This document shows, one piece after another, positions 6,918 to 64,000 of a stretch of DNA of 64,000 nt. The stretch lies in assembly GCA_030647555.1 (NCBI GenBank), contig JAUSJG010000008.1:193467-257466 (forward strand), written 5' to 3'. A program made the translations under genes and the position numbers. This DNA comes from a bacterium. Lineage in GTDB: Bacteria > Patescibacteriota > Andersenbacteria > UBA10190 > CAIZMI01. Position 1 is the first letter of the stretch, and the number at the start of each line of letters is the position of its first letter. Below the pieces are notes generated by a model. The model saw only the letters and a list, made by a program, of their open reading frames with translations. It did no database searches and was not told the origin of the DNA.

Positions 6918-8227
6918 AAATCGCTTTCCTTTCCTCGCGTTTTCCGCCTGATTTTATTGGTGGTGGGGAATGGTCGACAAAATATATTGCAGAAGGCCTG
7001 GTCGCACTTGGTCACGACGTGACTGTTATTTGTGGTGCGGAAGAAAATAAAGAGGAAATAATTAATGGCTTAAAAGTTAAACGCGTCAAAGCGTTGTTTG
7101 GTCTTTGGGACAAACCGCTTTTGGAAAAACGAAAAAGTAAAAAACTGGCGTTGGTTCTAAAGAAAGAGCTTGATGAAAAATTCGACATAGTTCACGCGCA
7201 TGATTTTCGCACCGCGCAAGCTTTAGCATTATTGAATTTGCCAAACGCGGTTGTAACAATTCGTGATTTCGCGCCAATCTGTGGGACAACTAATAATATG
7301 TTGTTTGACGGTCAATCTTGTAATGGTTGTACGTTGGCAAGTGTTTGTTTTAAGTGTCATCGTGTGCGCGAAGCGTCGTTTGCGCGGAAGCCGTTTAGAA
7401 TTTGGCAATACAAATTCAATTTGGCTTTTCGCAATGAAACATATCAAAATATTAAGAATCAAATTTATATCAGTGAGGCATTGCGTTCGCGCGTCGTATC
7501 ACGACTGGAATTGCCAAAAAATACGGCGGTCATTTCGAATCCAGTTAGTCCGGATTGGTTGCAACCGATCATGTCGCAATTCCCTCCTTTGTTAAATGGC
7601 GCGGCGGGTTCCCCGAAAACATCCAGTGAATGTTTGAGAGGGTGCCAGCGCCGGCACATCAGTGCCGTGCTGGGCGGGGGTGGATTCCGAAATAAAATTG
7701 TTTACGCTGGCACGGTTGATGACTACAAGGGAGTAAAAATTTTAATCGATGCGTTCGCAAAGTTTCAGAAAATAGAAAAAGATGTTGAGTTGATAATTAT
7801 TGGTAAGGGCAAAATCGCAGAATATCAAAAATACATCGCGCAAAATTGTATCGATATATCGATACAATTTGTCGGTAAAAAAACACAAGAAGAAGTGAGA
7901 GAATATTTTGACGAGGCGTTGGTAATTGTACAGCCGAGTATTTGGGAAGAGCCGTTTGGCAGAACGATTATCGAAGCCTACGCGCGCGGTCGCGCCGTTG
8001 TGGCGTCTAATGTTGGCGGAATTAAAGAAACGTTCAAAGAAGGCACCGGTTATTTGGTAAAACCCGGGAGTGTTGATGAATTGCATTTAGCTCTTAAAAA
8101 GATTGTGGAAAACAAAGAAGAAACCCAAAAAATGGGCGAAATCGGCAGAGCATATGTAGAACAAAATTTTACCGCGCAAATTGTTGCGCAGAAATATTTG
8201 GATTATTATAATCATGCGACCAAATAG
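6914..8227 (+). CDS. Glycosyltransferase family 4 carrying a Cys-rich insertion and an in-frame repeat element
   Basis: Start taken at the ATG overlapping the upstream TGA (ATGA) rather than the ORF-track 6860. 'FPPDFIGGGEW' N-terminus and 'EEPFGRTIIEAYARGRAVVASNVGGIKE' C-terminus. The C-X12-C-X2-C-X5-C-X2-C segment lies at 7281-7370 and the repeat at 7579-7692. Confidence 0.8.
   Translation: MKIAFLSSRFPPDFIGGGEWSTKYIAEGLVALGHDVTVICGAEENKEEIINGLKVKRVKALFGLWDKPLLEKRKSKKLALVLKKELDEKFDIVHAHDFRTAQALALLNLPNAVVTIRDFAPICGTTNNMLFDGQSCNGCTLASVCFKCHRVREASFARKPFRIWQYKFNLAFRNETYQNIKNQIYISEALRSRVVSRLELPKNTAVISNPVSPDWLQPIMSQFPPLLNGAAGSPKTSSECLRGCQRRHISAVLGGGGFRNKIVYAGTVDDYKGVKILIDAFAKFQKIEKDVELIIIGKGKIAEYQKYIAQNCIDISIQFVGKKTQEEVREYFDEALVIVQPSIWEEPFGRTIIEAYARGRAVVASNVGGIKETFKEGTGYLVKPGSVDELHLALKKIVENKEETQKMGEIGRAYVEQNFTAQIVAQKYLDYYNHATK
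7579..7692. repeat. Composite hairpin repeat family A/B, copy 1 (left end plus A core), in-frame inside the GT4 CDS
   Basis: Near-identical to 27530-27645, including ...GAGGGTGCCAGCGCCGGCACATCAGTGCCGTGCYGGGCGGGGGTGGATTC. It is 114 bp, i.e. 38 codons. Confidence 0.8.
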
Positions 8228-10048: not shown

Positions 10049-10119
10049 AGGATAATTAGTGAAATGATAGTTGAAATTGTTCTTTATTACCAGGGCTTTT
10101 TTGGGTAAAAATTATTCAT

Positions 10120-10246
10120 AAAATCCCAATGACCAAATCTCAAATCCCAACAAAACTCTAAAACCTTAAATGACCAAAACTTTAGTTTTTGGGATTTAGG
10201 TAATTATGATTTTGTTGGACATTGGGGTTTGGTCATTGGGATTTAA
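10120..10246. repeat. Intergenic imperfect palindrome, family D, copy 1
   Basis: Left arm AAATCCCAATGACCAAATCTCAAATCCCAACAAAAC. Right arm GATTTTGTTGGACATTGGGGTTTGGTCATTGGGATTT. Confidence 0.8.
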
Positions 10247-10318
10247 AAATATTGTAAATTTTGATTGAAATTATAGTGCTTCAGTGCTACATTGAGCCAA
10301 CTAACAACTACTCTATAA

Positions 10319-13496: not shown

Positions 13497-13627
13497 GAAT
13501 TTTCAATTATCAATGACCAATTTTCAATCAATTATTAAATGGCTTAATTATCAAATAACGACGCCCCCATTGATAATTTAAGAATTGATCATTAATTGAT
13601 AATTGGTCATTGATAATTGAAAATTAG
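13497..13627. repeat. Intergenic palindromic element, family E, copy 1
   Basis: Perfect 25-bp inverted repeat AATTTTCAATTATCAATGACCAATT ... AATTGGTCATTGATAATTGAAAATT flanking a spacer of about 70 bp. Confidence 0.85.
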
Positions 13628-16313: not shown

Positions 16314-16334
16314 TTTTGCCTATGCAAAATTATT

Positions 16335-16488
16335 AAATCCCAATATCCAAACCCCAAATCCCAACAAAATCCCAATTATTTAAATCTCAAACCCCATGTT
16401 TGGTCATTTGTGGAATTAGGGTTTTGTTGGACATTGCCTGCCGGCCATAGCTTTAGCGACGGCTGGGTCATTAGGTTTTGGGATTTTT
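16335..16488. repeat. Intergenic imperfect palindrome, family D, copy 2
   Basis: Arms AAATCCCAATATCCAAACCCCAAATCCCAACAAAATCCC ... GGTCATTAGGTTTTGGGATTTTT, with an internal GTTTTGTTGGACATTG shared with copy 1. Confidence 0.8.
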
Positions 16489-18366: not shown

Positions 18367-18369
18367 CGC

Positions 18370-18460
18370 AAGGTCGGACTTTGCGAAAAGGTCCGACCTT
18401 GATTGGTCGGCAAGAAGGATGCGACCAATGAGGGTCGGACCCCGCGAGGAGTCCGACCCT
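18370..18460 (+). repeat. Three consecutive perfect hairpins (GGTCGGAC family C) directly after the glyA stop
   Basis: Hairpin 1: AGGTCGGACTTT-GCG-AAAGGTCCGACCT. Hairpin 2: ATTGGTCG-N12-CGACCAAT. Hairpin 3: GGGTCGGAC-CCCGCGAGGA-GTCCGACCC. Related copies lie at 62151-62192 and 63169-63215. Confidence 0.75.
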
Positions 18461-18514
18461 GCTTACGGTTAAATATGTTGTTTAATTGTAATAATTCTGC
18501 TATAATATTTTACT

Positions 18515-19407: not shown

Positions 19408-19445
19408 TTGTATATAGTATTTGGTATATAGTATATGGATTTAGT
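19408..19445. repeat. Short repeat H (TGTATATAGTATATGGATTTA), copy 1
   Basis: Matches 51787-51808. It is inverted at 51891-51918. Confidence 0.6.
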
Positions 19446-19493
19446 GGGCAATAATTTCGCTAGAATTTTTACGAATAGAAGTAGTTAAACATA

Positions 19494-22914: not shown

Positions 22915-22971
22915 TTGGTTATTCGGTATTCTGTTTAGTAATTGGTGGGCGTGTTTGGCTAGAAAGCTTTT

Positions 22972-23096
22972 AAACCCCAAATCCTAAACACCAATGTCCA
23001 ACAAAATCCTAATTATTTAAATCACAAAAAATACGTTTTAGTCATTAGGTTTTTTTGATTTTTGTTGGGATTTGGTCATTGGGATTTGGGTTTTTA
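22972..23096. repeat. Intergenic imperfect palindrome, family D, copy 3
   Basis: AAACCCCAAATCCTAAACACCAATGTCCAACAAAATCC ... TTTTTGTTGGGATTTGGTCATTGGGATTTGGG. Confidence 0.8.
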
Positions 23097-23137
23097 TATT
23101 GCTTGGTTTCTCGTTATGAGTCTGTTAATGTGTCATT

Positions 23138-27529: not shown

Positions 27530-27720
27530 CATTCCCTCCTTTATCAAATGGCGCGGCGGATGCCCCGAGAACATCCGGTGGATGTTCGAGAGGGTGCCAG
27601 CGCCGGCACATCAGTGCCGTGCCGGGCGGGGGTGGATTCTGAAAAGAATTCGTAATAATTACTTAATCCCTCCCATCCTCCCTTTGGTAAAGGGAGGAGA
27701 CGCGGTGATTTCGCAGAATT
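27530..27720. repeat. Full-length composite hairpin repeat (A core plus B hairpin arm), intergenic copy
   Basis: TTCCCTCCTTT...GTGCCAGCGCCGGCAC...GGGGTGGATTC...TTAATCCCTCCCATCCTCCCTTTGGTAAAGGGAGGAGACG. It is partly shared with 7579-7692 and 48121-48242. Confidence 0.8.
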
Positions 27721-30303: not shown

Positions 30304-30337
30304 AGGATCAGACGGTTAAACTGATTCCCGCCCTTCA

Positions 30338-30364
30338 GGGCGAGGCTCGCCCAGATGGGCGGCC
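30338..30364. repeat. 25-nt GC-rich repeat G, intergenic copy
   Basis: GGGCGAGGCTCGCCCAGATGGGCGGCC, nested inside CCCGCCC...GGGCGG. Confidence 0.8.
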
Positions 30365-30451
30365 TGCTTGATACAGGAATGACACGGCGGGAGATTTAGT
30401 TCTTAGTACCGGGTTGCGGCGGTAACCACTAATTTCGTTTCTTGTGGTAAA

Positions 30452-33797: not shown

Positions 33798-33802
33798 TAA
33801 GT

Positions 33803-33940
33803 GAGTCAATTTGAAATTTGAAATTTAGAATTTGAAATCAATTTTTAATATCTAAATTTGAAATACGAACGCGTTTTTTCAAATTAATTTATTACGATAT
33901 TTCAAATTGATTAAAAATTTCAAATTATAAATTAAAAATT
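33803..33940. repeat. Intergenic palindromic element, family F (TTGAAATTT words)
   Basis: TCAATTTGAAATTTGAAATTTAGAATTTGAAATCAATTTTTAA ... ATTTCAAATTGATTAAAAATTTCAAATT. Confidence 0.75.
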
Positions 33941-34148
33941 GGGGAACCCATATTGTGCATTGTTTGGAATATTATTATTGATGCCACTTTCCCCTTGACG
34001 TCAATTTGAATGTCGTGTACCGTATCTGTCCATAGCACATAAAAAATCAGTGTTTGGCATGGCGAAGTGACCATATAACGGTTATTGTCACAAGCCCCAA
34101 GCACGAAATTATGTGTTTAAGATTAATTTGTCAGTAACCAATAACATC

Positions 34149-34745: not shown

Positions 34746-36323
34746 ATGCTCCAAAAAGAAGTTCTTGATATTCTTAAGACCGGTGCCTCGGTTTTTTTGA
34801 CCGGTGAACCCGGTAGTGGGAAGACACACGTTATTCGCGAATATATCAGATATTTGCGTTCCGTGAAAATTGATGTCGCGGTTACCGCTTCTACTGGAAT
34901 TGCGGCGACGCACCTTGGTGGCGTGACGATTAATTCTTGGAGCGGGATTGGGATTAAGAAAATTCTTTCGAAATATGATCTCGATTACATCGCGAGTAAT
35001 GAGTATTTGGTAAAAAGAATTACTAAAACGAAGGTGCTCATTATTGATGAGGTATCGATGTTGGATGGTAGTACATTGGATAGTATTGAACGTGTTTGTC
35101 GCGCCATCAAACAGTCGGAGTTGCCTTTTGGCGGGATGCAAACTGTTTTGGTTGGTGATTTTTTTCAACTTCCGCCCGTGGCCAGACAGGGCGAACCGCC
35201 GGCCAAATTCGCGTTTGATTGCGCCGCTTGGTTTAAGGGGAAATTTTTGGTCTGTTATTTGCATGAGCAGTTTCGGCAAAGTGATCAAGATTTTTTAAAT
35301 GTTTTATCGGCCGTGCGAAAAAACGCGGTAACAGATGAACATTTAGCGCATTTGGATAAGCGATGTGTGGAACTGGATTTTAGCGGTGCGACGCCCGCCC
35401 CGGGAGGCGAGGCTCGCCCTGATGGGCGGCAATTAACACGGTTATATTCACATAATTTGGATGTTGATAATGTTAATAATGAGGCGCTAAAGAAAATTCC
35501 CGGCGAGGCAAAGATATTTAAAATGGAAACAACCGGACGCAGAATATTGGTTGATCAAATTAAACGCGGTTGCTTATCGCCGGAAACTTTAGTGTTAAAA
35601 AAGGACGCAGTGGTGATGTTTACCAAAAATAGCCCCAAAGGATTGTTTGTTAACGGTACTTTGGGTCGTGTGGTGGAATTTAATTCATTTAGCGGAATGC
35701 CGGTGGTAAAAACAAAAGACGGCAGAAAGATTGAAACCGAAAAAATGGATTGGGCGATTGATGACAACGGGCGCGTGTTGGCGCGGGTCAGTCAAATTCC
35801 ATTGCGTCTGGCATGGGCTTTAACTGTTCATAAGAGTCAGGGGATGTCGCTGGACGTGGCGTTTATCGACTTGAGAACCGCTTTTGTGGCCGGTCAGGGT
35901 TATGTGGCATTATCGCGCGTGCGAACATTGCAGGGTTTGTTTTTGTGCGGGTATAACAAACAGGCTTTATTGGTGCATCCGGAAGTTTTAGTGAAAGATG
36001 TGGATTTTCGGGCGCAATCGGAAGCCCTGTCGCAAGAGTTTTCTAAATTATCGGCAGAGGAACTGGAAAAGATGCATCGGAATTATATTCAAGGAATGGG
36101 CGGTGTTTTGAAAACTAGCGGGGAAAGTGAAAAAAAATATTCCTTGGAAATAATTCGCGAAAAATTTAAAAATGCGTACGCCAAATGGACGGAGGAAGAT
36201 GACAAATTATTGGCGGAATTATTTGGCCAGGGCAGGGGATATAAGGATATGGCCAATCACTTTGGTCGTAAAACCGGCGCGATTACGGCGCGTTTAAAGA
36301 AACTAAAGCTGATTGAGGAATAA
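34746..36323 (+). CDS. SF1B RecD/Pif1-family DNA helicase with a C-terminal HTH-like tail
   Basis: 'LTGEPGSGKTH', 'LIIDEVSMLD' and 'VHKSQGMSLD'. Contains repeat G in-frame at 35406-35430. Confidence 0.75.
   Translation: MLQKEVLDILKTGASVFLTGEPGSGKTHVIREYIRYLRSVKIDVAVTASTGIAATHLGGVTINSWSGIGIKKILSKYDLDYIASNEYLVKRITKTKVLIIDEVSMLDGSTLDSIERVCRAIKQSELPFGGMQTVLVGDFFQLPPVARQGEPPAKFAFDCAAWFKGKFLVCYLHEQFRQSDQDFLNVLSAVRKNAVTDEHLAHLDKRCVELDFSGATPAPGGEARPDGRQLTRLYSHNLDVDNVNNEALKKIPGEAKIFKMETTGRRILVDQIKRGCLSPETLVLKKDAVVMFTKNSPKGLFVNGTLGRVVEFNSFSGMPVVKTKDGRKIETEKMDWAIDDNGRVLARVSQIPLRLAWALTVHKSQGMSLDVAFIDLRTAFVAGQGYVALSRVRTLQGLFLCGYNKQALLVHPEVLVKDVDFRAQSEALSQEFSKLSAEELEKMHRNYIQGMGGVLKTSGESEKKYSLEIIREKFKNAYAKWTEEDDKLLAELFGQGRGYKDMANHFGRKTGAITARLKKLKLIEE
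35406..35430. repeat. 25-nt GC-rich repeat G, in-frame copy inside the helicase CDS
   Basis: GGCGAGGCTCGCCCTGATGGGCGGC. It encodes ...GGEARPDGRQ... Confidence 0.8.
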
Positions 36324-43895: not shown

Positions 43896-45133
43896 TTGCT
43901 ATTTCCCTCGCTCCAAATTTTGAAACAAAGGACGCTTTATTGGCACTGAAACAGCTGTTTTTGCCATGGCGTTGGCGTAAAGGTACTGCCAATCAAAGAT
44001 TGGTCGCTAAATTACAAGCAATACTTGGCAGGAAGGAAATTTATACGGTTAATAGCGCGCGTTGGGGACTATATTTATTGCTTCAGAATTTGCGTCTTGA
44101 GAAAGATACGGAAGTTTTATTGCAGGCGTTTACTTGCGTCTCCGTTCCAGGCCCGGTGCTCTGGAATAATTTGAAACCGGTTTACGTTGATATTCTGGAA
44201 AGAGAATTAACAATGGATCCTCTTGATCTGGAGCGAAAAATTACAGCTAAAAGTCGGGTAATTATTGTTCAACACACTTTTGGCATACCGGCTCGGATGG
44301 ACGAAATAATGACGATTGCCAAGAAACACAACTTAATTGTGATCGAGGATTGCGCACATACGCTTGGAGGGAAACATCGCGATAAGCTTTTGGGCACGAT
44401 TGGTGACGCCTCAATTTTTAGTTTTGGTCGCGACAAAGCAATCTCAAGTGTTTTTGGTGGTGCAATTATGGTTAATAATCAAAAAGTGTTTACTAGTATT
44501 AAGTCTGCTGTGGCAGAATTGCCATTGAGTAAAAACGGGTGGGTTCTCCAGCAACTGATGCATCCGATTTTGTTTGAGTTGATTATTAAGCCATTATATT
44601 TCACGGCGCAGATCGGAAAGATAAAATTAGTCTTCGCTCAGAAGGTCGGTCTGCTTTCTAAAGCCATCGCGTCACATGAAAAGTCTGGCGGTAAGCCCGC
44701 TTTTGAATGCGCAAAATTATCAAACGCGTTGGCGGAACTGGCCTGTTTTCAATTAAGCCGGTTAGAGGCATTTAACGCGCGTCGTCGCGAAATCGTTGAA
44801 ATATACAACAAGGAATTACACCAATCTGGTTTTGATGGACAGAGTTTATTGCGTTATCCGATTTTTGTTGATGAACCGCGAAAATTGTTATTAGCGGCTC
44901 GCAAAGAAAAGATTTTGCTAGGGGACTGGTATGAAGTGATTGCGCCAAAAGACACGGATCTAAAGGCCGTACAATATGTCGCGGGTTCTTGTCCAGTGGC
45001 GGAATCGGTCGCTAAGAGAGAGATAAATTTACCGACCTACTACACGCTAAAAAACAGTGACCTAAAGAAAATCGTGGAGTTTACTTTAAGGACTGTCCCT
45101 AAAGTAAACGGCTACTTTAGGGACAGTCCTTAA
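43892..45133 (+). CDS. DegT/DnrJ/EryC1/ArnB-family PLP-dependent sugar aminotransferase
   Basis: 'DASIFSFGRDKAISSVFGGAI' (PLP Lys region) and 'IIVQHTFGIPARMDEI'. Confidence 0.7.
   Translation: MIAISLAPNFETKDALLALKQLFLPWRWRKGTANQRLVAKLQAILGRKEIYTVNSARWGLYLLLQNLRLEKDTEVLLQAFTCVSVPGPVLWNNLKPVYVDILERELTMDPLDLERKITAKSRVIIVQHTFGIPARMDEIMTIAKKHNLIVIEDCAHTLGGKHRDKLLGTIGDASIFSFGRDKAISSVFGGAIMVNNQKVFTSIKSAVAELPLSKNGWVLQQLMHPILFELIIKPLYFTAQIGKIKLVFAQKVGLLSKAIASHEKSGGKPAFECAKLSNALAELACFQLSRLEAFNARRREIVEIYNKELHQSGFDGQSLLRYPIFVDEPRKLLLAARKEKILLGDWYEVIAPKDTDLKAVQYVAGSCPVAESVAKREINLPTYYTLKNSDLKKIVEFTLRTVPKVNGYFRDSP
45090..45129 (+). other. Perfect 17-bp stem hairpin within the last 14 codons of the aminotransferase CDS
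   Basis: GGACTGTCCCTAAAGTA-AACGGC-TACTTTAGGGACAGTCC. Confidence 0.6.
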
Positions 45134-45145
45134 AGTGTTAAACCT

Positions 45146-46539: not shown

Positions 46540-48249
46540 TTAAGGGTTACCCTTAAAGTACTTTCTCACCACGATATCTCCTTGATATCCAAACAGTTCC
46601 GAAAAACTTTTTTCCGATTCTAGTTTATATTCATCCGATACTGATAGTTTTGAACCTCCGAAACCGGTTGTGTCCACCGCCCAAATTACATCCGGTTTTT
46701 CTTGAAATATTTCGGGGCCGACAATATCATCTTTTGTTAGAATCGGTCCGCCACTGAAATGGGAAAGTTCGCCTGTTTCAGAATATAAACGCGGTGGCGT
46801 AATCTCCCCTTGCCCCGCTCTGATGAGCGAGGCTCGCCCAGATGGGCGGCCCTCTTTATTAAAGAAGGGAACGCTTGAGTGAAACAAGACCGAAAAATAG
46901 ACAAAACTGGAACTAACAAGGATTGGTTCGTTTTGATTGGCATTTTGTCGGAGATATTGTACGGCCGTGACTGTTCCGGGGTGATCTTGAAAATGCAGTG
47001 ATGTCCAGAATTGATTGACTGTATAAAAGCCATATCCGGCTATTATTAGCGCCACAACGGAACTAATATAAAACTTTTTTGGTAATAACGAAATACTGCG
47101 GGCAAGCAAGATAATTAATGGAATAGACGCAAAAACAAAGTAGCGGTCTTGGTAGATACTTGTTCCGCGTGATAGATACCACGCGCCAAGAAATGGAATA
47201 ATGAATGATGAAACAAGAAGCCAGTCGCCTTTTTTTCGACCAAATAATAGAGGAATAATTAATAATAAGGCAACCAAGACGGTGCAAATTATTGCGGTTT
47301 GATGAGAGAAATCACTTACTCCACCCAAGAGAAGGCGGGACATTGTGTTTGGAATCGACCAATCGTTCATCGGCGGAATCCAGTAGCTTTGTTGGACTTG
47401 GGCACGCTGTTTCAGGAAAGTTGTAAGCCAGGGCAGAAAAATGAGAACGGATAAAATCATACCGGATACTAATGACCATGTGTTGGCACTGCGAAGAGTC
47501 ACTAATGGTTTTTTAACAAGACGCAATATTAAATATCCGCCGATAAAAATAAAAATTCCCACGATGCTAAACAGGGCAAAGTAGTGGACATGAAATAACG
47601 CACCGATCAAAAGTCCTAAAATGATTCCGTCTCGCCAAATTTTTTTCGTCTCGGTTTGTTGTGCCGTCTTAATCATATATACCAACGCAAAACAGAGAAT
47701 TAGCGTACCGAGAGTGTACATTCTGGTTTCCCATGCGTATTGCACTTGAAAGGCGGAGACAGACGTTAAAAGGGCGCCAATAATCCCAACGCGTCTTGAG
47801 TTGAATAAAACTTTACCAGAAAAATAAACACCAAGGACTGTGGCGAAGGAAAGCAGTACGGAAAGAAGACGCAACCAAAATAAACTCACGTCTATTCCAA
47901 GTATGTGGAGAGGCGCGTTCCATAACCAAAGAATTAAGTAATAAAGAATCGGATGCACATCAGCGGCGGCGCGCTGTAAAAATTCCAGAAATGGGAATTG
48001 GATGAGACGCCACGAAAAGGCTTCGTCAAACCAAAGGGAACGGTCGGTGAGATGGGTAAGGCGGATAAGGAATGCAGACAGAAGAATGATGAACAGCGTG
48101 AAAGTAGTTATCAAGTTGTGCGCGTCGCGTTTCCCTCCCTTATTCAAGGGAGGGAGAGGGTGGGTTAGGAATGGGATCGCGCAAAACTTTCTTAATCCCT
48201 CCCAACCTCCCTTTGGTAAAGGGAGGAGACGACGCGACACCATTTTCAC
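46540..48249 (-). CDS. GT-C glycosyltransferase, ArnT/PMT-like, with a repeat-encoded N-terminus and a soluble C-terminal domain
   Basis: 'LWFDEAFSWRL' DE motif after TM1. GTG start. Residues about 3-43 are encoded by the composite repeat. Repeat G lies in-frame at 46825-46851. Confidence 0.6.
   Translation of the reverse strand: MKMVSRRLLPLPKGGWEGLRKFCAIPFLTHPLPPLNKGGKRDAHNLITTFTLFIILLSAFLIRLTHLTDRSLWFDEAFSWRLIQFPFLEFLQRAAADVHPILYYLILWLWNAPLHILGIDVSLFWLRLLSVLLSFATVLGVYFSGKVLFNSRRVGIIGALLTSVSAFQVQYAWETRMYTLGTLILCFALVYMIKTAQQTETKKIWRDGIILGLLIGALFHVHYFALFSIVGIFIFIGGYLILRLVKKPLVTLRSANTWSLVSGMILSVLIFLPWLTTFLKQRAQVQQSYWIPPMNDWSIPNTMSRLLLGGVSDFSHQTAIICTVLVALLLIIPLLFGRKKGDWLLVSSFIIPFLGAWYLSRGTSIYQDRYFVFASIPLIILLARSISLLPKKFYISSVVALIIAGYGFYTVNQFWTSLHFQDHPGTVTAVQYLRQNANQNEPILVSSSFVYFSVLFHSSVPFFNKEGRPSGRASLIRAGQGEITPPRLYSETGELSHFSGGPILTKDDIVGPEIFQEKPDVIWAVDTTGFGGSKLSVSDEYKLESEKSFSELFGYQGDIVVRKYFKGNP
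46825..46851. repeat. 25-nt GC-rich repeat G, in-frame copy inside the GT-C CDS
   Basis: GAGCGAGGCTCGCCCAGATGGGCGGCC. On the minus strand it encodes ...EGRPSGRASLIRAG... Confidence 0.8.
48121..48242. repeat. Composite hairpin repeat, short variant with terminal inverted repeats
   Basis: CGCGTCGCGTTTCCCTCCCTTATTCAAGGGAGGG...CTTAATCCCTCCCAACCTCCCTTTGGTAAAGGGAGGAGACGACGCGAC. Confidence 0.8.
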
Positions 48250-51772: not shown

Positions 51773-51918
51773 ATGTATATGGTATTTTGTATATAGTATA
51801 TGGATTTATTGACCGAAGACATGAAACGAAATATTTTAAAAAAACTTTTATTGGTGCGGAATACTTGACGACAGATTCGCCTTCTAAATCAATATACTAC
51901 ATACCATATACAAAATAC
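51773..51918. repeat. Inverted pair of H repeats flanking about 80 bp upstream of dnaX
   Basis: CAATGTATATGGTATTTTGTATATAGTATATGG and its inverted partner AATATACTACATACCATATACAAAATAC. Confidence 0.6.
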
Positions 51919-58983: not shown

Positions 58984-59115
58984 AAAATTTTCAATTATCA
59001 ATTTTACAATTTTCAATTAATTTTCAAAATTATAATTATCAAACGATGGCGGTTTTTTGAAAATTTGGTCATTTAGAAATTAATTGAAAATTGGCCATTG
59101 ATAATTGATAATTAA
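58984..59115. repeat. Intergenic palindromic element, family E, copy 2
   Basis: AAATTTTCAATTATCAATTTTACAATTTTCAATTAATTTTC ... GAAAATTGGCCATTGATAATTGATAATT, plus an internal TTTGGTCATTT. Confidence 0.75.
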
Positions 59116-59141: not shown

Positions 59142-62069
59142 ATGTCTGTTAAAAAACAAGGGAAAACAAAAAAGATTAGCATCGATCTCTCTGATCTCAA
59201 TACCGAGCAACGCGCGGCCGTAACGCACGAAAAGGGGCCGCTTTTGCTGATTGCCGGCGCCGGTACGGGCAAAACAACGGTAATCGCGAATAAAATTTTG
59301 TGGTTAATCCAAGAACGGGGCATAAGACCGGATAATATACTCGCCCTTACTTTTACGGAAAAAACCGCGAAGGAAATGGAAGAACGCGTTGATCGTTTAC
59401 TTCCTATGGGTTTAAGTAGGGTGCGCATCGCCACCTTTCACGGTTTCTGCGAGCGCCTGCTCCGCGACTACGCGATTGAAATCGGACTCGATCCGTCGTT
59501 TAAAATCTTAACCGTTCCCGAGCAATGGTTGTTGTTGCGGAGGCATCTTTTTGAATTGCCGTTGAATTATTACCGTCCGCTCGGCAATCCCACCAGCTTT
59601 ATCAAAGATATTGTCCGCGCCATCGGTGCTTCTAAAGACCAAGATTTGATGCCCGAACGCTATATTTCCTACGCCGGAGTTTTAAGAGAATCCGCGGAGA
59701 CGGAAAACGACGAAAAAAAGAAAGCGGGTCTGCTCGAATCGGCCGTACGCTGGAACGAATTTGGCGAGGTCTATCGCGCCTACCAGCAAATTGTTTTGCA
59801 AGAAGGAGCGATGGATTTCGGCGATATTATTCTTAACGCTGTACGTCTTTTGGAAGAACGCCCCTCGGTGGCGATGCGTCTCCGCGAAACTTTAGAAGAA
59901 GTTTTAGTGGACGAATTTCAGGACACCAACGGCGCACAAAATACACTTCTTCGCCTTTTAGTGCCGGACAAAAATGGCCAAATCACTGTGGTGGGTGACG
60001 ACGATCAATCCATTTATGCTTGGCGTGGTTCCAATATCGCCAACATTCTCACATTTCAAGAATGGTATCCGGGCGCGAAAAAAATTGTCCTAACCAAAAA
60101 TTATCGTTCCCCCCAAACCTTACTTGATTCGGCGTATAAACTGATTCAGTTTAATAATCCAATGCGGTTGGAAAAAACCGCCAACGTTGATAAGCGCCTG
60201 CAAAGCGCCACGGGGGAACAAAACAGTCTTTCCGTTTCGCACCATCATTTTCCAACCATTGAAGATGAGTGCGCGTTTATCGCCGATCAAATTATTTACG
60301 GCGTGGAAAAAATGAATCGGTCGTTGAGCGACTTTACAATTCTTTTACGCGCCAACGCGCAATCTGATATTATCGTTCCGGCGCTCATTCAGCGAGACAT
60401 TCTTTTTCATGTTTCGGACGCGCGCGGATTACTGCTTCGGCCGGAGGTGCGCGACGTGATCGCCTATTTGCGCGTGGTTTTTAATCCGCGCGACAATGTT
60501 TCTATTTTTCGGCTAATTTCGCATCCGATTTATAATCTCGCGCCATATGAACGCCAGCGTTTATTTAATGACAGTCGGCAGGAAAATTTTGATTTGACGG
60601 AAAAATTACGCACGGCCAGCAAGCAACCGGAATATTCCGAAGAAACTAAAACCGGTTTAAAAAAGTTTATCGATTTGCTCGATCAGCACGTCGCCAGTGC
60701 CCCTTCGGCGCAACCGTCGCGAATCGCGCTCGAATATCTCCAAAAAAGCGGATATTTGGAGTGGGCGATTAAAAATAGCGAGCAAACTCCCGAAATTCTG
60801 CCGAATATCAGCGAGTTTGTGCAATTTATCAAGGAATACGAACGCTCCGACCAAGAAGCCTCGTTATTAAGCTTTTTGGATTATCTTGAACTGGTTGTTT
60901 CCTCCGGCGAAAGCCCCGCGCAAGCTTCATTGAGTGGTGATTTTGAAGCGGTAAAAATTCAAACCGTACACAGCGCGAAAGGCTTGGAATTTCCTGTCGT
61001 GTTTATTTTAGGGGCCACGAAAGATAAATATCCGGGAGCAAACAGAAGCAATCCATTGGAAATTCCAAATTATTTTTCCGACAGCCAGGGAATTGACGAA
61101 CGTGAAGCGCACACAATGGAAGAACGGCGCTTGTTTTACGTGGCGATGACGCGCGCCAAGGAAAGACTTTTTATTACTTCCGCCAGTCAAAGTTTGACCG
61201 GCAAATCGATCAAGAAACCATCGTTATTTATTGAAGAAGCGGAAATTGAAACCGTGGCGGGCAAAGGAACAACCATCGCCCAACAATTAAAATTACCGAT
61301 TAGTTTGGAGAAAAAAGCGACCAAAAATTCGATTTCTTTGACCATTCCTAAAACAACCAGTGTTTCGCAAATTGAAAACTACGAAAAATGCCCATTGCAA
61401 TATAAATTTCAGTATATCTATCGCATTCCTGTTTTACAGGGCCACGCGATGACATTTGGAAATACAATCCATAAAATATTGAAAGAGGTGGCGCAAAAAG
61501 TGACCGCCGGACAAACACTGGAGATTGCCGACGCGCTTTCGTTATATAAAAAACATTGGAACAGTGACGGTTTTGAGGACCGTCAACATGAAGAAGAGCG
61601 TAAAGAAAAAGGAAAAATAATTTTAACCGCCTATCTGGAAGCCAATCCGTACTTGTTAAATACCAAACCGCTTTATGCGGAAGAATCTTTTCGCTTGCGG
61701 ATCGATGATGTAATAGTAAATGGGCGCATCGACCGCGTTGATAAAATTGACGGGCTGATAACGGTTACCGATTTCAAAACAGGAAAAGTAAAAGATCAAA
61801 AAGACGCGGATAAAAGTTTACAGCTTTCCGTGTACGCAATCGCGCTCAAAGACGCTTTTGATATCAAGGCGGAGCGTCTGGTTTTATCATATTTGGAAGG
61901 GCCAACCGACCGTCGCACGACGCGCACCGACGCGGTTTTGAAAAAAACGCGCAAAAGATTGATGGAAACGGTTAACAAAATAGTCGCGCAAGATTTCACC
62001 CCCAAACCGGAAAAAATGACCTGTCACTTCTGCGCCTTCAATAAAATCTGCGACTTCTCGCTGGAGTAA
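59142..62069 (+). CDS. UvrD/PcrA-like SF1A helicase fused to a C-terminal PD-(D/E)xK (RecB/Cas4-like) nuclease domain with a Cys cluster
   Basis: 'LIAGAGTGKTT', 'VDEFQDTN', 'VHSAKGLEFPVVF', then 'RIDRVDK...VTDFKTGK' and 'CHFCAFNKIC'. Confidence 0.85.
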   Translation: MSVKKQGKTKKISIDLSDLNTEQRAAVTHEKGPLLLIAGAGTGKTTVIANKILWLIQERGIRPDNILALTFTEKTAKEMEERVDRLLPMGLSRVRIATFHGFCERLLRDYAIEIGLDPSFKILTVPEQWLLLRRHLFELPLNYYRPLGNPTSFIKDIVRAIGASKDQDLMPERYISYAGVLRESAETENDEKKKAGLLESAVRWNEFGEVYRAYQQIVLQEGAMDFGDIILNAVRLLEERPSVAMRLRETLEEVLVDEFQDTNGAQNTLLRLLVPDKNGQITVVGDDDQSIYAWRGSNIANILTFQEWYPGAKKIVLTKNYRSPQTLLDSAYKLIQFNNPMRLEKTANVDKRLQSATGEQNSLSVSHHHFPTIEDECAFIADQIIYGVEKMNRSLSDFTILLRANAQSDIIVPALIQRDILFHVSDARGLLLRPEVRDVIAYLRVVFNPRDNVSIFRLISHPIYNLAPYERQRLFNDSRQENFDLTEKLRTASKQPEYSEETKTGLKKFIDLLDQHVASAPSAQPSRIALEYLQKSGYLEWAIKNSEQTPEILPNISEFVQFIKEYERSDQEASLLSFLDYLELVVSSGESPAQASLSGDFEAVKIQTVHSAKGLEFPVVFILGATKDKYPGANRSNPLEIPNYFSDSQGIDEREAHTMEERRLFYVAMTRAKERLFITSASQSLTGKSIKKPSLFIEEAEIETVAGKGTTIAQQLKLPISLEKKATKNSISLTIPKTTSVSQIENYEKCPLQYKFQYIYRIPVLQGHAMTFGNTIHKILKEVAQKVTAGQTLEIADALSLYKKHWNSDGFEDRQHEEERKEKGKIILTAYLEANPYLLNTKPLYAEESFRLRIDDVIVNGRIDRVDKIDGLITVTDFKTGKVKDQKDADKSLQLSVYAIALKDAFDIKAERLVLSYLEGPTDRRTTRTDAVLKKTRKRLMETVNKIVAQDFTPKPEKMTCHFCAFNKICDFSLE

Positions 62070-62150
62070 AAAATGGGAACAAAAAGTGGGGAGCCGCCAT
62101 ACCCCTCTTTTTTTAAAGAGGGGCGAGGGGAGATTCCGTCGTCATTCGTA

Positions 62151-62192
62151 GGGGGTCCGTTCCTGTTACGCAGCGTCGGACACTGATCGACG
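62151..62192 (+). repeat. GGTCGGAC hairpin repeat (family C), copy 2
   Basis: GGGGGTCCGTTCCTGTTACGCAGCGTCGGACACTGATCGACG. Confidence 0.6.
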
Positions 62193-62239
62193 TAAAAAAA
62201 CGGAAGGGTGGAATTCAAAATGAGAGAGTCCGGTACTTC

Positions 62240-62268
62240 TTGCAAACAAAACACGAACGATTTATAAT
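62240..62268 (+). promoter_or_regulatory. Near-consensus σ70-type promoter TTGCAA-17-TATAAT upstream of the DinD-like gene
   Basis: TTGCAAacaaaacacgaacgattTATAAT. Duplicated at 63252-63280. Confidence 0.6.
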
Positions 62269-62297
62269 AATGATGTAAAACAATTAATTTAATAAAT

Positions 62298-63134
62298 ATG
62301 AATATTGAAATAACAACACAAATAGCGTTATTCAGAGGTGAAAAAATTAGAAGGACGCTTCATCAAAACGAATGGTGGTTTTCAGTGGTGGACGCGTGCG
62401 GAGTTCTTACAGACAGTAAAGATGCTGGGGCATATTGGCGAAAACTCAAGCAGAGATTAATTGAAGAGGGAAGCGAGGTCGTGACATTTTGTCACGGACT
62501 GAAATTGGAAGCCACAGACGGTAAAAAATACGAAACCGATTGTGCTACAACTGAAGGTCTCTTTCGTATCGCGCAGTCCATCCCATTCTCCAAAGCCGAG
62601 CCTTTTAAGCGCTGGTTGGCCAAGGTGGGGTATGAACGCGTGCAAGAAATTGAAAATCCCGAACTGGCCACAAAAAGAACACGCGTTCTTTACAAACTCA
62701 AAGGATACTCGGATAATTGGATTGAAAAAAGAATGCGTGGTATCGCTATTCGGGAAGAATTGACCGATGAGTGGCTAAAACGGGGAGCACAGGAAGAAAG
62801 AGATTATGCAATTCTTACCGCGGAAATATCCAAAGTGGCTTTTGGTGTTACGCCCAACGAATACAAAAAACTTAAAGGTTTGAAACGGGAAAATCTGCGT
62901 GATCATATGGATGATTTTGAGCTAATTTTTACAATGCTGGGAGAACGATCTACCACGGAAATCCATCGCACTGAAAATTCGAAAGGTGTTCCAAAACTGC
63001 GTAGTGACGCAAAAGCCGGAGGCGAAATTGCCGGTGGCGCAAGAAAAAAACTAGAAGATCGTCTTGGTCGTTCGGTGGTTACGAAAAATAACTTTTTCCA
63101 AAAACCGGCGGATAAAATGGACTTGAAAAAATAG
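62298..63134 (+). CDS. dinD: DinD-like DNA-damage-inducible protein (Bro-N domain)
   Basis: Bro-N-like 'NEWWFSVVDACGVLT' and a DinD-like 'FGVTPNEYKKLKGLKRENLRDHMDDFELIF' segment. Confidence 0.65.
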   Translation: MNIEITTQIALFRGEKIRRTLHQNEWWFSVVDACGVLTDSKDAGAYWRKLKQRLIEEGSEVVTFCHGLKLEATDGKKYETDCATTEGLFRIAQSIPFSKAEPFKRWLAKVGYERVQEIENPELATKRTRVLYKLKGYSDNWIEKRMRGIAIREELTDEWLKRGAQEERDYAILTAEISKVAFGVTPNEYKKLKGLKRENLRDHMDDFELIFTMLGERSTTEIHRTENSKGVPKLRSDAKAGGEIAGGARKKLEDRLGRSVVTKNNFFQKPADKMDLKK

Positions 63135-63168
63135 GATGAACGAATAATTGTTGTTGTTGCGTAGTAAA

Positions 63169-63215
63169 AGGGTCCGTCCTTGCCGTACAAGGTCGGACTC
63201 TGATTGGCGTGCGTC
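63169..63215 (+). repeat. GGTCGGAC hairpin repeat (family C), copy 3
   Basis: GGGTCCGTCCTTGCCGTACAAGGTCGGACTCTGATTGGCG. Confidence 0.6.
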
Positions 63216-63251
63216 GCTCACCCTCCCCAAAAAAACGTCCACAACTCGCTC

Positions 63252-63280
63252 TTGCAAACAATACACGAACGTCATATAAT
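63252..63280 (+). promoter_or_regulatory. Second copy of the TTGCAA-17-TATAAT promoter module
   Basis: TTGCAAacaatacacgaacgtcaTATAAT. The ATG lies 5 nt downstream, so the mRNA may be leaderless. Confidence 0.6.
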
Positions 63281-63284
63281 AATT

Positions 63285-63560
63285 ATGAAAGCGAAGGGGG
63301 AAAGCAATATATTATTAATTCAATTAGTATATGAAATACAAAAAAATAAAATTGTTCCGAATAACAGTTATACGGAATTTTTGCTTTATACCACTCCGAA
63401 CGGCAAGGTAAAAGTTGAAATATTTTTACGAAATGAAGATATCTGGCTGACTCAAGCAAAAATCACTGAACTTTTTGGCGTTGAAAGAAGTGTTGTTACA
63501 AAGCACCTGCAAAATATTTATTTAGACAAGGAGCTCAAAAAGGAAGCAACAAGTCAATAA
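63285..63560 (+). pseudogene. RhuM-family N-terminal fragment (truncated)
   Basis: 'LYTTPNGKVKVEIFLRNEDIWLTQAKITELFGVERSVVTKHLQNIY' matches the RhuM N-terminus. It stops after about 91 aa, whereas the family is about 330 aa. Confidence 0.5.
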
Positions 63561-63632
63561 TTGCACAGGTTAAAATGAGGGAGAAAAATAATAATGAATT
63601 TAAAAAATATCGGGTTTGAAATTAAATAAAAT

Positions 63633-63971
63633 ATGTATATTTTTTTAGACGAAAGCGGACAGTTCATAAAACACAATGACGATGATTATTTTGTTGTAGC
63701 ATCTTTTACTGTTGATGATCCGCGGCGAACGCAAAAAAGATTTAAAACCTGGCAGAAAACAAGGTTCCCCAAAAGAATGCGCAATCAGGCGGAAATAAAA
63801 TATTCTGCGGTAGATATTTCCGAATTACTGCGTTTGAGGACGCTAAAGTTTATTTCTAGACTTGATGTGCGAATAAATTATACATTCCTGAAGAGAAAAA
63901 ATATTCCTGACAATTTTGTTAAGAAAAACAAAAATAAATTATACATTCCTGAAGAGAAAAAATATTCCTGA
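63633..63971 (+). pseudogene. DUF3800-family gene, frameshifted by a 61-bp tandem duplication
   Basis: 'MYIFLDESGQF' DUF3800 N-terminal hallmark. The duplication at 63876-63997 shifts the frame to a premature TGA. Confidence 0.5.
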
Positions 63972-63997
63972 CAATTTTGTTAAGAAAAACAAAACTC
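63876..63997 (+). repeat. Perfect 61-bp tandem duplication (2 copies)
   Basis: AAATTATACATTCCTGAAGAGAAAAAATATTCCTGACAATTTTGTTAAGAAAAACAAAA repeated head-to-tail. Confidence 0.85.
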
Positions 63998-64000
63998 AAC

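Follow-up and report, generated by a model that had tools for sequence, protein, structure and literature searches.

Toward the right end of the window, by which is meant the whole 64-kb stretch of DNA that was analysed, a helicase gene is followed on the same strand by a gene for a Bro-N domain protein, by the remnant of a RhuM-family gene, and by a DUF3800 gene that runs to the window end (Table 1). The intergenic regions preceding the Bro-N gene and the RhuM remnant are two copies of one module, in each of which a hairpin block, a spacer, and a promoter block follow one another.

Table 1. Features of the locus and of one distant site, numbered from the first letter of the window
Feature	Position	Strand	Description
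GC-rich nested palindromes, possible relatives of the module hairpin	18368..18469 (about)		GGTCGGAC/GTCCGACC arms, between glyA and folD
UvrD/PcrA-type helicase with PD-(D/E)XK nuclease domain	59142..62069	+	Pfam; last syntenic housekeeping gene
Separate hairpin, intergenic region 1	62090..62141	+	CCCCTCTTT/AAAGAGGGG core at 62103-62124; fold -23.5 kcal/mol; outside the duplicated module
Hairpin block, copy 1	62146..62193	+	CGTAG head, degenerate stem-loop 62153-62183, conserved tail CTGATCGACGT
Spacer, copy 1	62194..62237	+	A7CG at 62194-62202, the sole part common with copy 2
Promoter block, copy 1	62238..62278	+	-35 TTGCAA 62240-62245, -10 TATAAT 62263-62268, ATG-TAA 62273-62278
Bro-N domain gene, MDO8512259.1	62298..63134	+	278 aa; phage-defence candidate, family PDC-S13; behind copy 1
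Hairpin block, copy 2	63160..63210	+	CGTAG head, strong stem-loop 63170-63200, conserved tail CTGATTGGCGT
Spacer, copy 2	63211..63249	+	A7CG at 63229-63237
Promoter block, copy 2	63250..63290	+	-35 TTGCAA 63252-63257, -10 TATAAT 63275-63280, ATG 63285
RhuM-family N-terminal remnant, pseudogene	63331..63625 (right end approximate)	+	Behind copy 2; remainder of gene missing
DUF3800 gene	63633..64000 (window end)	+	Pfam DUF3800; perfect 61-nt tandem duplication 63872-63993

Genes of the Accessory Island

Five relatives have a syntenic locus with the gene order ABC transporter, PIN, 431-aa protein, helicase, small gene, GT2, GT4, and L21, and their helicases are 62%–74% identical to the one in the window. 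DNA homology between these relatives and the window ends at the helicase stop codon, which marks the left edge of the island; the Bro-N island is missing from all five, which continue with the small gene, GT2, GT4, and L21. Because homology stops at this codon and other genes follow it in the relatives, the comparison of gene order shows that the Bro-N gene, the RhuM remnant, and the DUF3800 gene belong to an accessory island inserted directly behind the helicase gene. On its right side, the island extends past the end of the window.

The Bro-N protein matches the Pfam family PF02498 (E = 5.5e-11, 43.4 bits for a gathering cutoff of 25.6) and, over its full length (residues 7–273), the PADLOC model of PDC-S13 (PDLC04920, E = 3.6e-115). 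Homologues with at least 80% identity are found in Patescibacteria, Omnitrophota, Nitrospirota, Planctomycetota, and other phyla; viral relatives are only 38%–68% identical, and no phage context was found. A previous reading of the window, made from the sequence only, had called this gene dinD-like. The label does not fit a Bro-N protein that leaves the NCBIfam DinD model unmatched and aligns with the DinD protein of Escherichia coli at E = 0.54 in BLASTP. Some of the homologues carry the name DinD, in JGI only.

The same reading had named the next gene rhuM-like, and here the homologues bear it out. Of the original protein the N-terminal 75 aa are left; this fragment has no Pfam match itself, but its longer closest homologues carry PF13310 and it matches the PADLOC models of PDC-S05 with E values down to 9e-22. 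RhuM-like genes have been described as putative toxins within restriction-modification and defence loci in a survey of HEPN proteins (PMC3710099).

The true start of the remnant is shown to be ATG 63331 by the agreement of homologue N-termini, which read MKKK..IVPNNS(Y/F)TEFLLY, of blastn homology to two RhuM homologue loci, which begins at 63329–63331, and of an alignment with homologous DNA in which one base is missing from the A7 run at 63340–63346 (a −1 frameshift) and a second 1-nt deletion lies after 63554. The same ATG is the one aligned with the Bro-N ATG when the two intergenic regions are compared. Since the −1 frameshift fuses an upstream ATG, at 63285, to the reading frame, the annotated 91-aa ORF that begins there (MDO8512260.1, “hypothetical protein”) is a frameshift artefact. 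The 5-nt distance noticed between the −10 hexamer and ATG 63285 is correct; the leaderless rhuM transcript deduced from this spacing has to be given up, because the real start is ATG 63331 and ATG 63285 only heads the frameshift-fused ORF. Leaderless-type geometry, in which the −10 hexamer lies 5–9 nt before the start, is common in the window (18515, 49841 and 56989 on the minus strand, and 59142).

One Control Region in Two Copies

The proposal that a unit of hairpin and promoter is duplicated in front of two adjacent genes proved correct, each of the two blocks recurring in two copies. When the whole window is scanned with the 33-nt pattern of the promoter block, the exact matches are 62239–62271 and 63251–63283; there is no third match with up to 3 mismatches in the window, and 100 shuffles gave 0. 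The 41-nt block that contains TTGCAA-17-TATAAT is 85% identical between the copies (35/41), which lie ∼1,015 nt apart. The hairpin block (41–48 nt) has likewise only two copies in the window, 62153–62193 and 63170–63210, with 71% identity, and its form GGGTCCGT..GTCGGACNCTGAT occurs exactly twice, at 62153 and 63170. As for the motif thought to be shared by the hairpins, GTCGGAC is common to both copies and the full GGTCGGAC is not. In the alignment of the two regions, the duplicated unit is the whole intergenic region from CGTAG to the start codon (∼150–170 nt). The duplicated object is one entire control region, rather than two separate motifs.

Conservation within this region is a mosaic. 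When aligned segments are compared with shuffles, the promoter block reaches z = 8.7 and the hairpin block z = 6.1; the remaining 5′UTR, that is, the AT-rich leader up to the ATG, is weaker (z = 2.7), the spacer between the blocks has a random level of similarity (z = −1.2), and the DNA 5′ of CGTAG gives z = 0. The similarity of the spacers is limited to A7CG, which is displaced between the copies. A small inversion in the spacer (GGAAGGGTG versus CACCCTCCC) was considered and found to be at chance level (p = 0.41). The hairpin block was also considered as a relic of coding sequence, with 7 of 13 differences falling at third codon positions in one frame, which is not significant (binomial p ∼ 0.1). 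Neither strand of the module holds conserved small ORFs beyond what DNA identity alone gives, and Rfam yielded no family for the module, whether judged by the gathering score or by a limit of E = 10. Several other dispersed intergenic repeat families occur in the same genome, where duplicated intergenic DNA is common.

In the module hairpins, a 5-nt centre separates imperfect inverted arms of 13 nt, and CGTAG lies 0–5 nt 5′ of each stem. The fold of copy 2 is strong (−21 kcal/mol, z = −3.8 against shuffles), and that of copy 1 is no better than the fold of shuffled sequence (−11.6 kcal/mol, z = +0.5), its arms being degenerate and complementary at 9/13 positions. Pairing is retained across the copies in 22/24 cells (92%), as compared with 25%–50% when the partners are slid. 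There is one double (compensatory) change, C-G to U-A, which with two sequences only is not significant, as 234/500 shuffles reach it. With a covariance model of both copies, copy 1 scores 59 bits and copy 2 scores 61 bits. Neither hairpin is called as a terminator and neither is followed by a U-tract, the tails being CTGATCGACG and CTGATTGGCG, whereas canonical terminators with a hairpin and a U-tract are present after other genes in the window. The hairpin thus differs from the canonical terminators of this genome, and its role is a guess. It was considered as a phased activator site and rejected as such: the hairpin centre of copy 1 is near −107 and that of copy 2 near −102, a 5-nt shift that equals half a helical turn.

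Possible relatives of the module hairpin are the GC-rich palindromes near 18.4 kb, which are the best non-self matches of the covariance model, at a borderline E = 0.05–0.2, and which match the module hairpin in nhmmer at E = 0.6. A promoter follows them, although without the conserved promoter block. A 12-mer shared with position 18369 (CAAGGTCGGACT) was discarded as evidence of kinship, as some 12-mer in common with the window turned up in 70% of shuffles. The covariance matches suggest, but do not prove, that the module hairpin and the 18.4-kb palindromes form a small REP-like family. The separate hairpin at 62090–62141 bears a loose resemblance to a repeat found at 27651 and 48180.

Outside the locus, no copy of the module was recovered. 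It is absent from the five syntenic relatives, from upstream of a 90%-identical Bro-N gene in an operon of SNF2/MmeI type (L002) and of an 82%-identical one beside T4SS genes (L003), and from upstream of two RhuM homologues. Being absent before these homologues, the control region is local, whereas the coding sequences are widely shared. Exact-pattern scans for the promoter block gave 0 matches in viral contigs, 1 in species-representative genomes, and 3 in JGI metagenomes; these last four were rejected as true copies, since all lack TATAAT, stand in unrelated contexts, and are at chance level for 19 specified bases. The hairpin pattern has 0 matches in viral contigs, nhmmer with both blocks found no match in all fetched loci, and blastn against phage and plasmid collections gave nothing significant. 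The sequence-only reading had wondered whether the block marks a genome-wide set of stress-induced genes; this idea finds no further copy in the window, in the relatives, or in the viral, genome, metagenome, phage, and plasmid collections. The feature is real but ordinary, and appears to be private to this lineage.

Putative Promoter, Hairpin, and Competing Explanations

To read the 3′ block as a promoter is reasonable, since both copies have good hexamers at a good spacing, point in the right direction, and lie just 5′ of a gene start. The claim that both copies keep exact −35 and −10 hexamers with 17-nt spacing also holds: TTGCAA-17-TATAAT agrees with the sigma-70 type at 10/12 positions in each and is co-oriented with the downstream gene. 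The −10 hexamer lies 29 nt before ATG 62298 in copy 1 and 50 nt before ATG 63331 in copy 2. A single match of this quality is not above chance in AT-rich DNA, as 9 matches at 10/12 are found in 3 kb for 6.5 ± 2.9 expected, and the significance rests on the duplication, not on the promoter score. The only plus-strand 10/12 matches just 5′ of the Bro-N and RhuM genes are the two module copies. Where the two promoter blocks differ, they do so mainly in the hexamer spacer (4/17 positions, versus 2/24 elsewhere), and both hexamers are identical. Elsewhere in the window there are further well-placed promoters of the form TTGxxx-17-TATAAT. The A7 tract was dismissed as an UP element, as its position is not kept (near −55 in copy 2 versus near −78 in copy 1).

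One may ask whether anything in this mosaic has been under selection. A one-time duplication could have left a neutral relic in which neither block is selected, the hairpin is functionless, and the uneven conservation is the product of chance and indels. Such a history would agree with the existence of two copies only, with a pseudogene behind copy 2, with a copy-1 hairpin no stabler than shuffled sequence, and with the non-significant covariation. It is nevertheless rather unlikely, because the two blocks (z = 8.7 and 6.1) are far better conserved than the spacer between them (z = −1.2), the hexamers and their 17-nt spacing are intact in both copies, and pairing in the hairpin is kept far above the level of slid partners. 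With two copies only, selection is not cleanly separable from history. Further, as copy 2 fronts a pseudogene, continued selection on it hinges on read-through into DUF3800, which we infer from the plus strand, where the stretch from 63290 to 63633 shows no terminator-like site; the DUF3800 gene is probably transcribed from the copy-2 promoter in this way.

Selection might also act on an operator. In a repressor-controlled promoter pair, the hexamer spacer with ACAAWACACGAACG, or the −10 region, would bind LexA, an island-encoded repressor, or a repressor of the Fur family, and both genes would be stress-inducible. The 13/17 identical positions of the hexamer spacer would fit this reading; yet such identity is as expected within a block that is 85% identical overall. 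A 7-1-7 box of Fur/PerR type overlaps the −10 hexamer of copy 2 with 2 mismatches, but copy 1 has no such match within 2 mismatches, and the box was rejected. The suggestion of LexA and SOS control, drawn from the CGAACG half-site in the spacer, fares no better. There is no dyad or direct repeat in the hexamer spacer of either copy, CGAACG has 33 occurrences in the window, and the only full GAAC-N4-GTTC (CGAACRNRYGTTCG) of the window, at 62677, lies inside the Bro-N coding sequence. In tblastn, the LexA protein of E. coli has a best E value of 0.22 against the 64-kb window, where no LexA homologue is thus detectable. As the Bro-N protein is not detectably DinD, the SOS analogy has no basis in the protein, and the collections searched hold no additional module copies that a regulon would share. 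A repressor-controlled pair is in our view unlikely.

The arrangement of the hairpins around the Bro-N gene raises another possibility: spacer, promoter, and Bro-N could make up a mobile cassette of ∼1 kb, bounded by hairpins that lie in direct orientation and serve as sites of recombination or transposition, the module then being a capture-and-express adaptor. Such sites could be REP/RAYT-like (with a GTAG head), attC-like, IS200/IS605-like, or Xer/dif-like. The geometry of arms, centre, and CGTAG described above would suit such sites, as would the high mobility of the Bro-N gene across phyla, an island location that is empty in relatives, and a spacer that becomes non-homologous just 3′ of the hairpin tail, as at a junction. 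However, A7CG and the promoter block were duplicated along with the hairpins and follow them in matching order, which means that the whole intergenic region was copied and not a site alone. The core sites of attC (RYYYAAC/GTTRRRY) are absent from the sequence, the copy-1 arms are degenerate, no recombinase was seen beside the module within the window, and the viral, genome, and metagenome collections contain zero copies. Bro-N homologues in L002 and L003 are embedded in operons without a flanking hairpin. Recombination sites are therefore quite an improbable explanation. An extension of the idea is very improbable: a CGTAG-headed hairpin as recombination site together with an outward promoter would make a portable adaptor with which a genome of Patescibacteria type collects highly mobile defence candidates of one gene each (PDC-S13 Bro-N, PDC-S05 RhuM) in an integron-like array, each cassette bringing or receiving its own promoter. 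Were many copies to be found at cassette borders genome-wide, the module would represent an interesting gene-capture system in uncultured bacteria.

The opposite strand was considered as well. A small RNA that starts on the minus strand in the AT-rich 5′UTR, runs antisense through the promoter block, and ends at the hairpin would make use of a promoter-like site at 63335–63306 and of the UUUU that follows the copy-2 hairpin on that strand. But on this strand copy 1 lacks a U-run behind its hairpin, folding is nothing out of the ordinary (z = −0.4 and −1.0), Rfam gives no match with E up to 10, and the region is antisense to no coding sequence, so that we give this small RNA hardly any credence.

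The explanation that we hold to be the probable one is more modest: an ordinary control region, composed of a REP-like 3′-end hairpin and a sigma-70 promoter, would have been duplicated within an island of defence type, its blocks being retained while its spacer decayed. The GC-rich palindrome of the 5′ part has no U-tract, and its most likely role is in the RNA, where it would form a 3′-end hairpin for the upstream gene. It would stabilise or insulate the upstream transcript in the manner of REP elements, and it may be one of a small set of related palindromes that the genome carries. The 3′ part would be a sigma-70-type promoter, TTGCAA-17-TATAAT. From copy 1, transcription is predicted to start near 62275 and to give the Bro-N gene a short leader without a Shine-Dalgarno sequence; from copy 2, it would start near 63287 and proceed through the dead RhuM remnant, probably into DUF3800. 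That two unrelated genes have one upstream region could mean either that the control region was duplicated or that the genes accreted behind its copies. Selection would then preserve the hairpin and the promoter and let the spacer decay.

The importance of these results lies mainly in annotation. MDO8512260.1 is to be read as a RhuM remnant, frameshifted and starting at 63331, and the “dinD-like” gene as a Bro-N/PDC-S13 defence candidate without an SOS signal. Beyond this, one control region would seem to be reused for unrelated accessory genes in this genome, which belongs to an uncultured group whose regulation and mobile elements are poorly known.

Comparison with Known Systems

The dinD gene of E. 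coli has a classic perfect CTGT-N8-ACAG box, AACTGTATATAAATACAGTT. The module has no comparable box and no LexA-type dyad, and the proteins have no significant similarity (E = 0.54).

Integrons offer a parallel, in that the locus alternates hairpins and genes along one strand in the manner of an array, imperfect palindromes separating accessory genes that are not related. There are also differences. An attC site has R′′ and R′ core sites, which are lacking here, where the arms are GGGTCCG.. and ..CGGACNC, without AAC/GTT cores. Integron cassettes usually lack a promoter, whereas every unit here has a putative one. An integrase was not seen, and the duplicated segment reaches far beyond the hairpin.

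Some MITEs carry promoters, as do the Correia elements of Neisseria. The module resembles them as a repeated intergenic element of ∼150 nt with a hairpin-forming part and a promoter for the downstream gene. It differs in having no visible terminal inverted repeats or target-site duplication and just two adjacent copies, with none elsewhere in the window or in public collections.

In phage morons and the units of defence islands, a gene comes with a promoter of its own and with a terminator or hairpin. The Bro-N and RhuM accessory genes, each with its own putative promoter, a hairpin between the units, and an island set in a conserved backbone correspond to this description. In contrast with morons, two unrelated genes here have homologous control regions, the hairpin is no canonical terminator, and a phage context was not found.

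REP and BIME are repetitive extragenic palindromes of Enterobacteria and Pseudomonas. Like them, the module contains an imperfect GC-rich palindrome of ∼30–35 nt that is intergenic, lies just 3′ of a stop codon, and lacks a U-tract. Both palindromes also have a GTAG-type head 5′ of the stem, which counts as one observation, the copies being related by descent, and the possibly related units at 18.4 kb form an inverted pair, as in BIMEs. The likeness to REP has its bounds, since at most 4–5 units are present in the 64 kb, with borderline family membership (E = 0.05–0.2), and the genome is not known to have a RAYT transposase. What sets the module apart from REP is that its palindrome has been copied together with a promoter, within a whole intergenic region.

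Conservation of the Bro-N protein and features of its neighbours

The Bro-N protein, identified as PDC-S13, keeps about 80% identity across very distant phyla among its homologues (P0002–P0120) and has 8000 matches at E ≤ 1e-10. The housekeeping helicase next to it is less conserved, with 74% identity to its nearest relative. At L002, the locus with a 90%-identical homologue, the gene is flanked by an SNF2/PLD helicase and an MmeI-type methyltransferase. The Bro-N coding sequence also contains the only GAAC-N4-GTTC of the window, a Cheo-box-like core (AAGAACACGCGTTCTT).

Among the homologues of the RhuM remnant (P0242–P0360), short N-terminal fragments of 75–130 amino acids, 65–90% identical, are very frequent in metagenomic contigs of many phyla, some of them occurring on tens of contigs. 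Such fragments represent either a frequent outcome of gene decay or a short form that stands alone. Near the window end, the DUF3800 gene contains a perfect 61-nt tandem duplication, which could be either a genuine frameshifting duplication or an assembly artefact.

Gene starts and upstream ATGs

In at least seven genes of the window, a TATAAT-like −10 hexamer lies just 5–9 nt ahead of the start codon and a Shine-Dalgarno sequence is absent, an arrangement that makes leaderless transcription seem common in this organism. In both copies of the duplicated hairpin-promoter module, an ATG lies 4 nt past the −10 hexamer, and the main ORFs behind them lack a Shine-Dalgarno sequence. This ATG is followed directly by a stop codon in copy 1 (ATG-TAA), and it opens a short upstream ORF overlapping the RhuM start in copy 2. 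Purely as speculation, ribosomes for the main ORFs could load at this ATG in leaderless fashion.

Palindromes and dispersed repeats

The best non-self matches of the covariance model built from the two module hairpins (E = 0.05–0.2) fall on the glyA-folD palindrome, whose fold has an energy of −65 kcal/mol (z = −7.7). It is followed by a TTGTTT-17-TATAAT promoter, with 8 nt between the −10 and the folD ATG.

Coordinates of the features in the window; (−), minus strand
Feature	Position	Remarks
Bro-N gene	62298-63134	
GAAC-N4-GTTC	62675-62690	
RhuM remnant, region with homologues	63331-63557	
DUF3800 tandem duplication	63872-63993	
Starts with close −10, no Shine-Dalgarno	18515, 20657(−), 34746, 49841(−), 51947, 56989(−), 59142	
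Module ATGs	62273-62278; 63285-63287	copy 1; copy 2
Nested GC-rich palindrome	18367-18466	between glyA (SHMT) and folD; arms GGTCGGAC/GTCCGACC
GC-rich structured dispersed repeats	7579-7701 vs 27531-27653; 30327-30386, 35394-35430 and 46814-46873; 27651-27702 vs 48180-48231	
First hairpin, helicase/Bro-N intergenic region	62098-62140	
38-nt repeat TGTATATAGTATTTGGTATATAGTATATGGATTTAGTG	19409-19446 vs 51774-51811	92% identical; two intergenic regions
Perfect palindrome	45083-45136	24-nt arms, 100% complementary; 6-nt gap; where two + strand genes meet
Long AT-rich palindromic intergenic repeats, two families (AAATCCCAATGACCAAA.. / TTTTCAATTATCAATGACCAA..)	10112-10254, 16325-16436, 22963-23098; also 13498-13625, 59052-59114 and perhaps 33798-33950	

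The genome's GC content is about 42%. Its GC-rich dispersed repeats are 77–90% identical and have no family match in Rfam, and some copies lie within long ORFs. The first hairpin between the helicase and Bro-N genes bears a loose likeness to the 27651/48180 element. In the two AT-rich families the arms span 40–70 nt with 75–90% complementarity, and these repeats look MITE-like.
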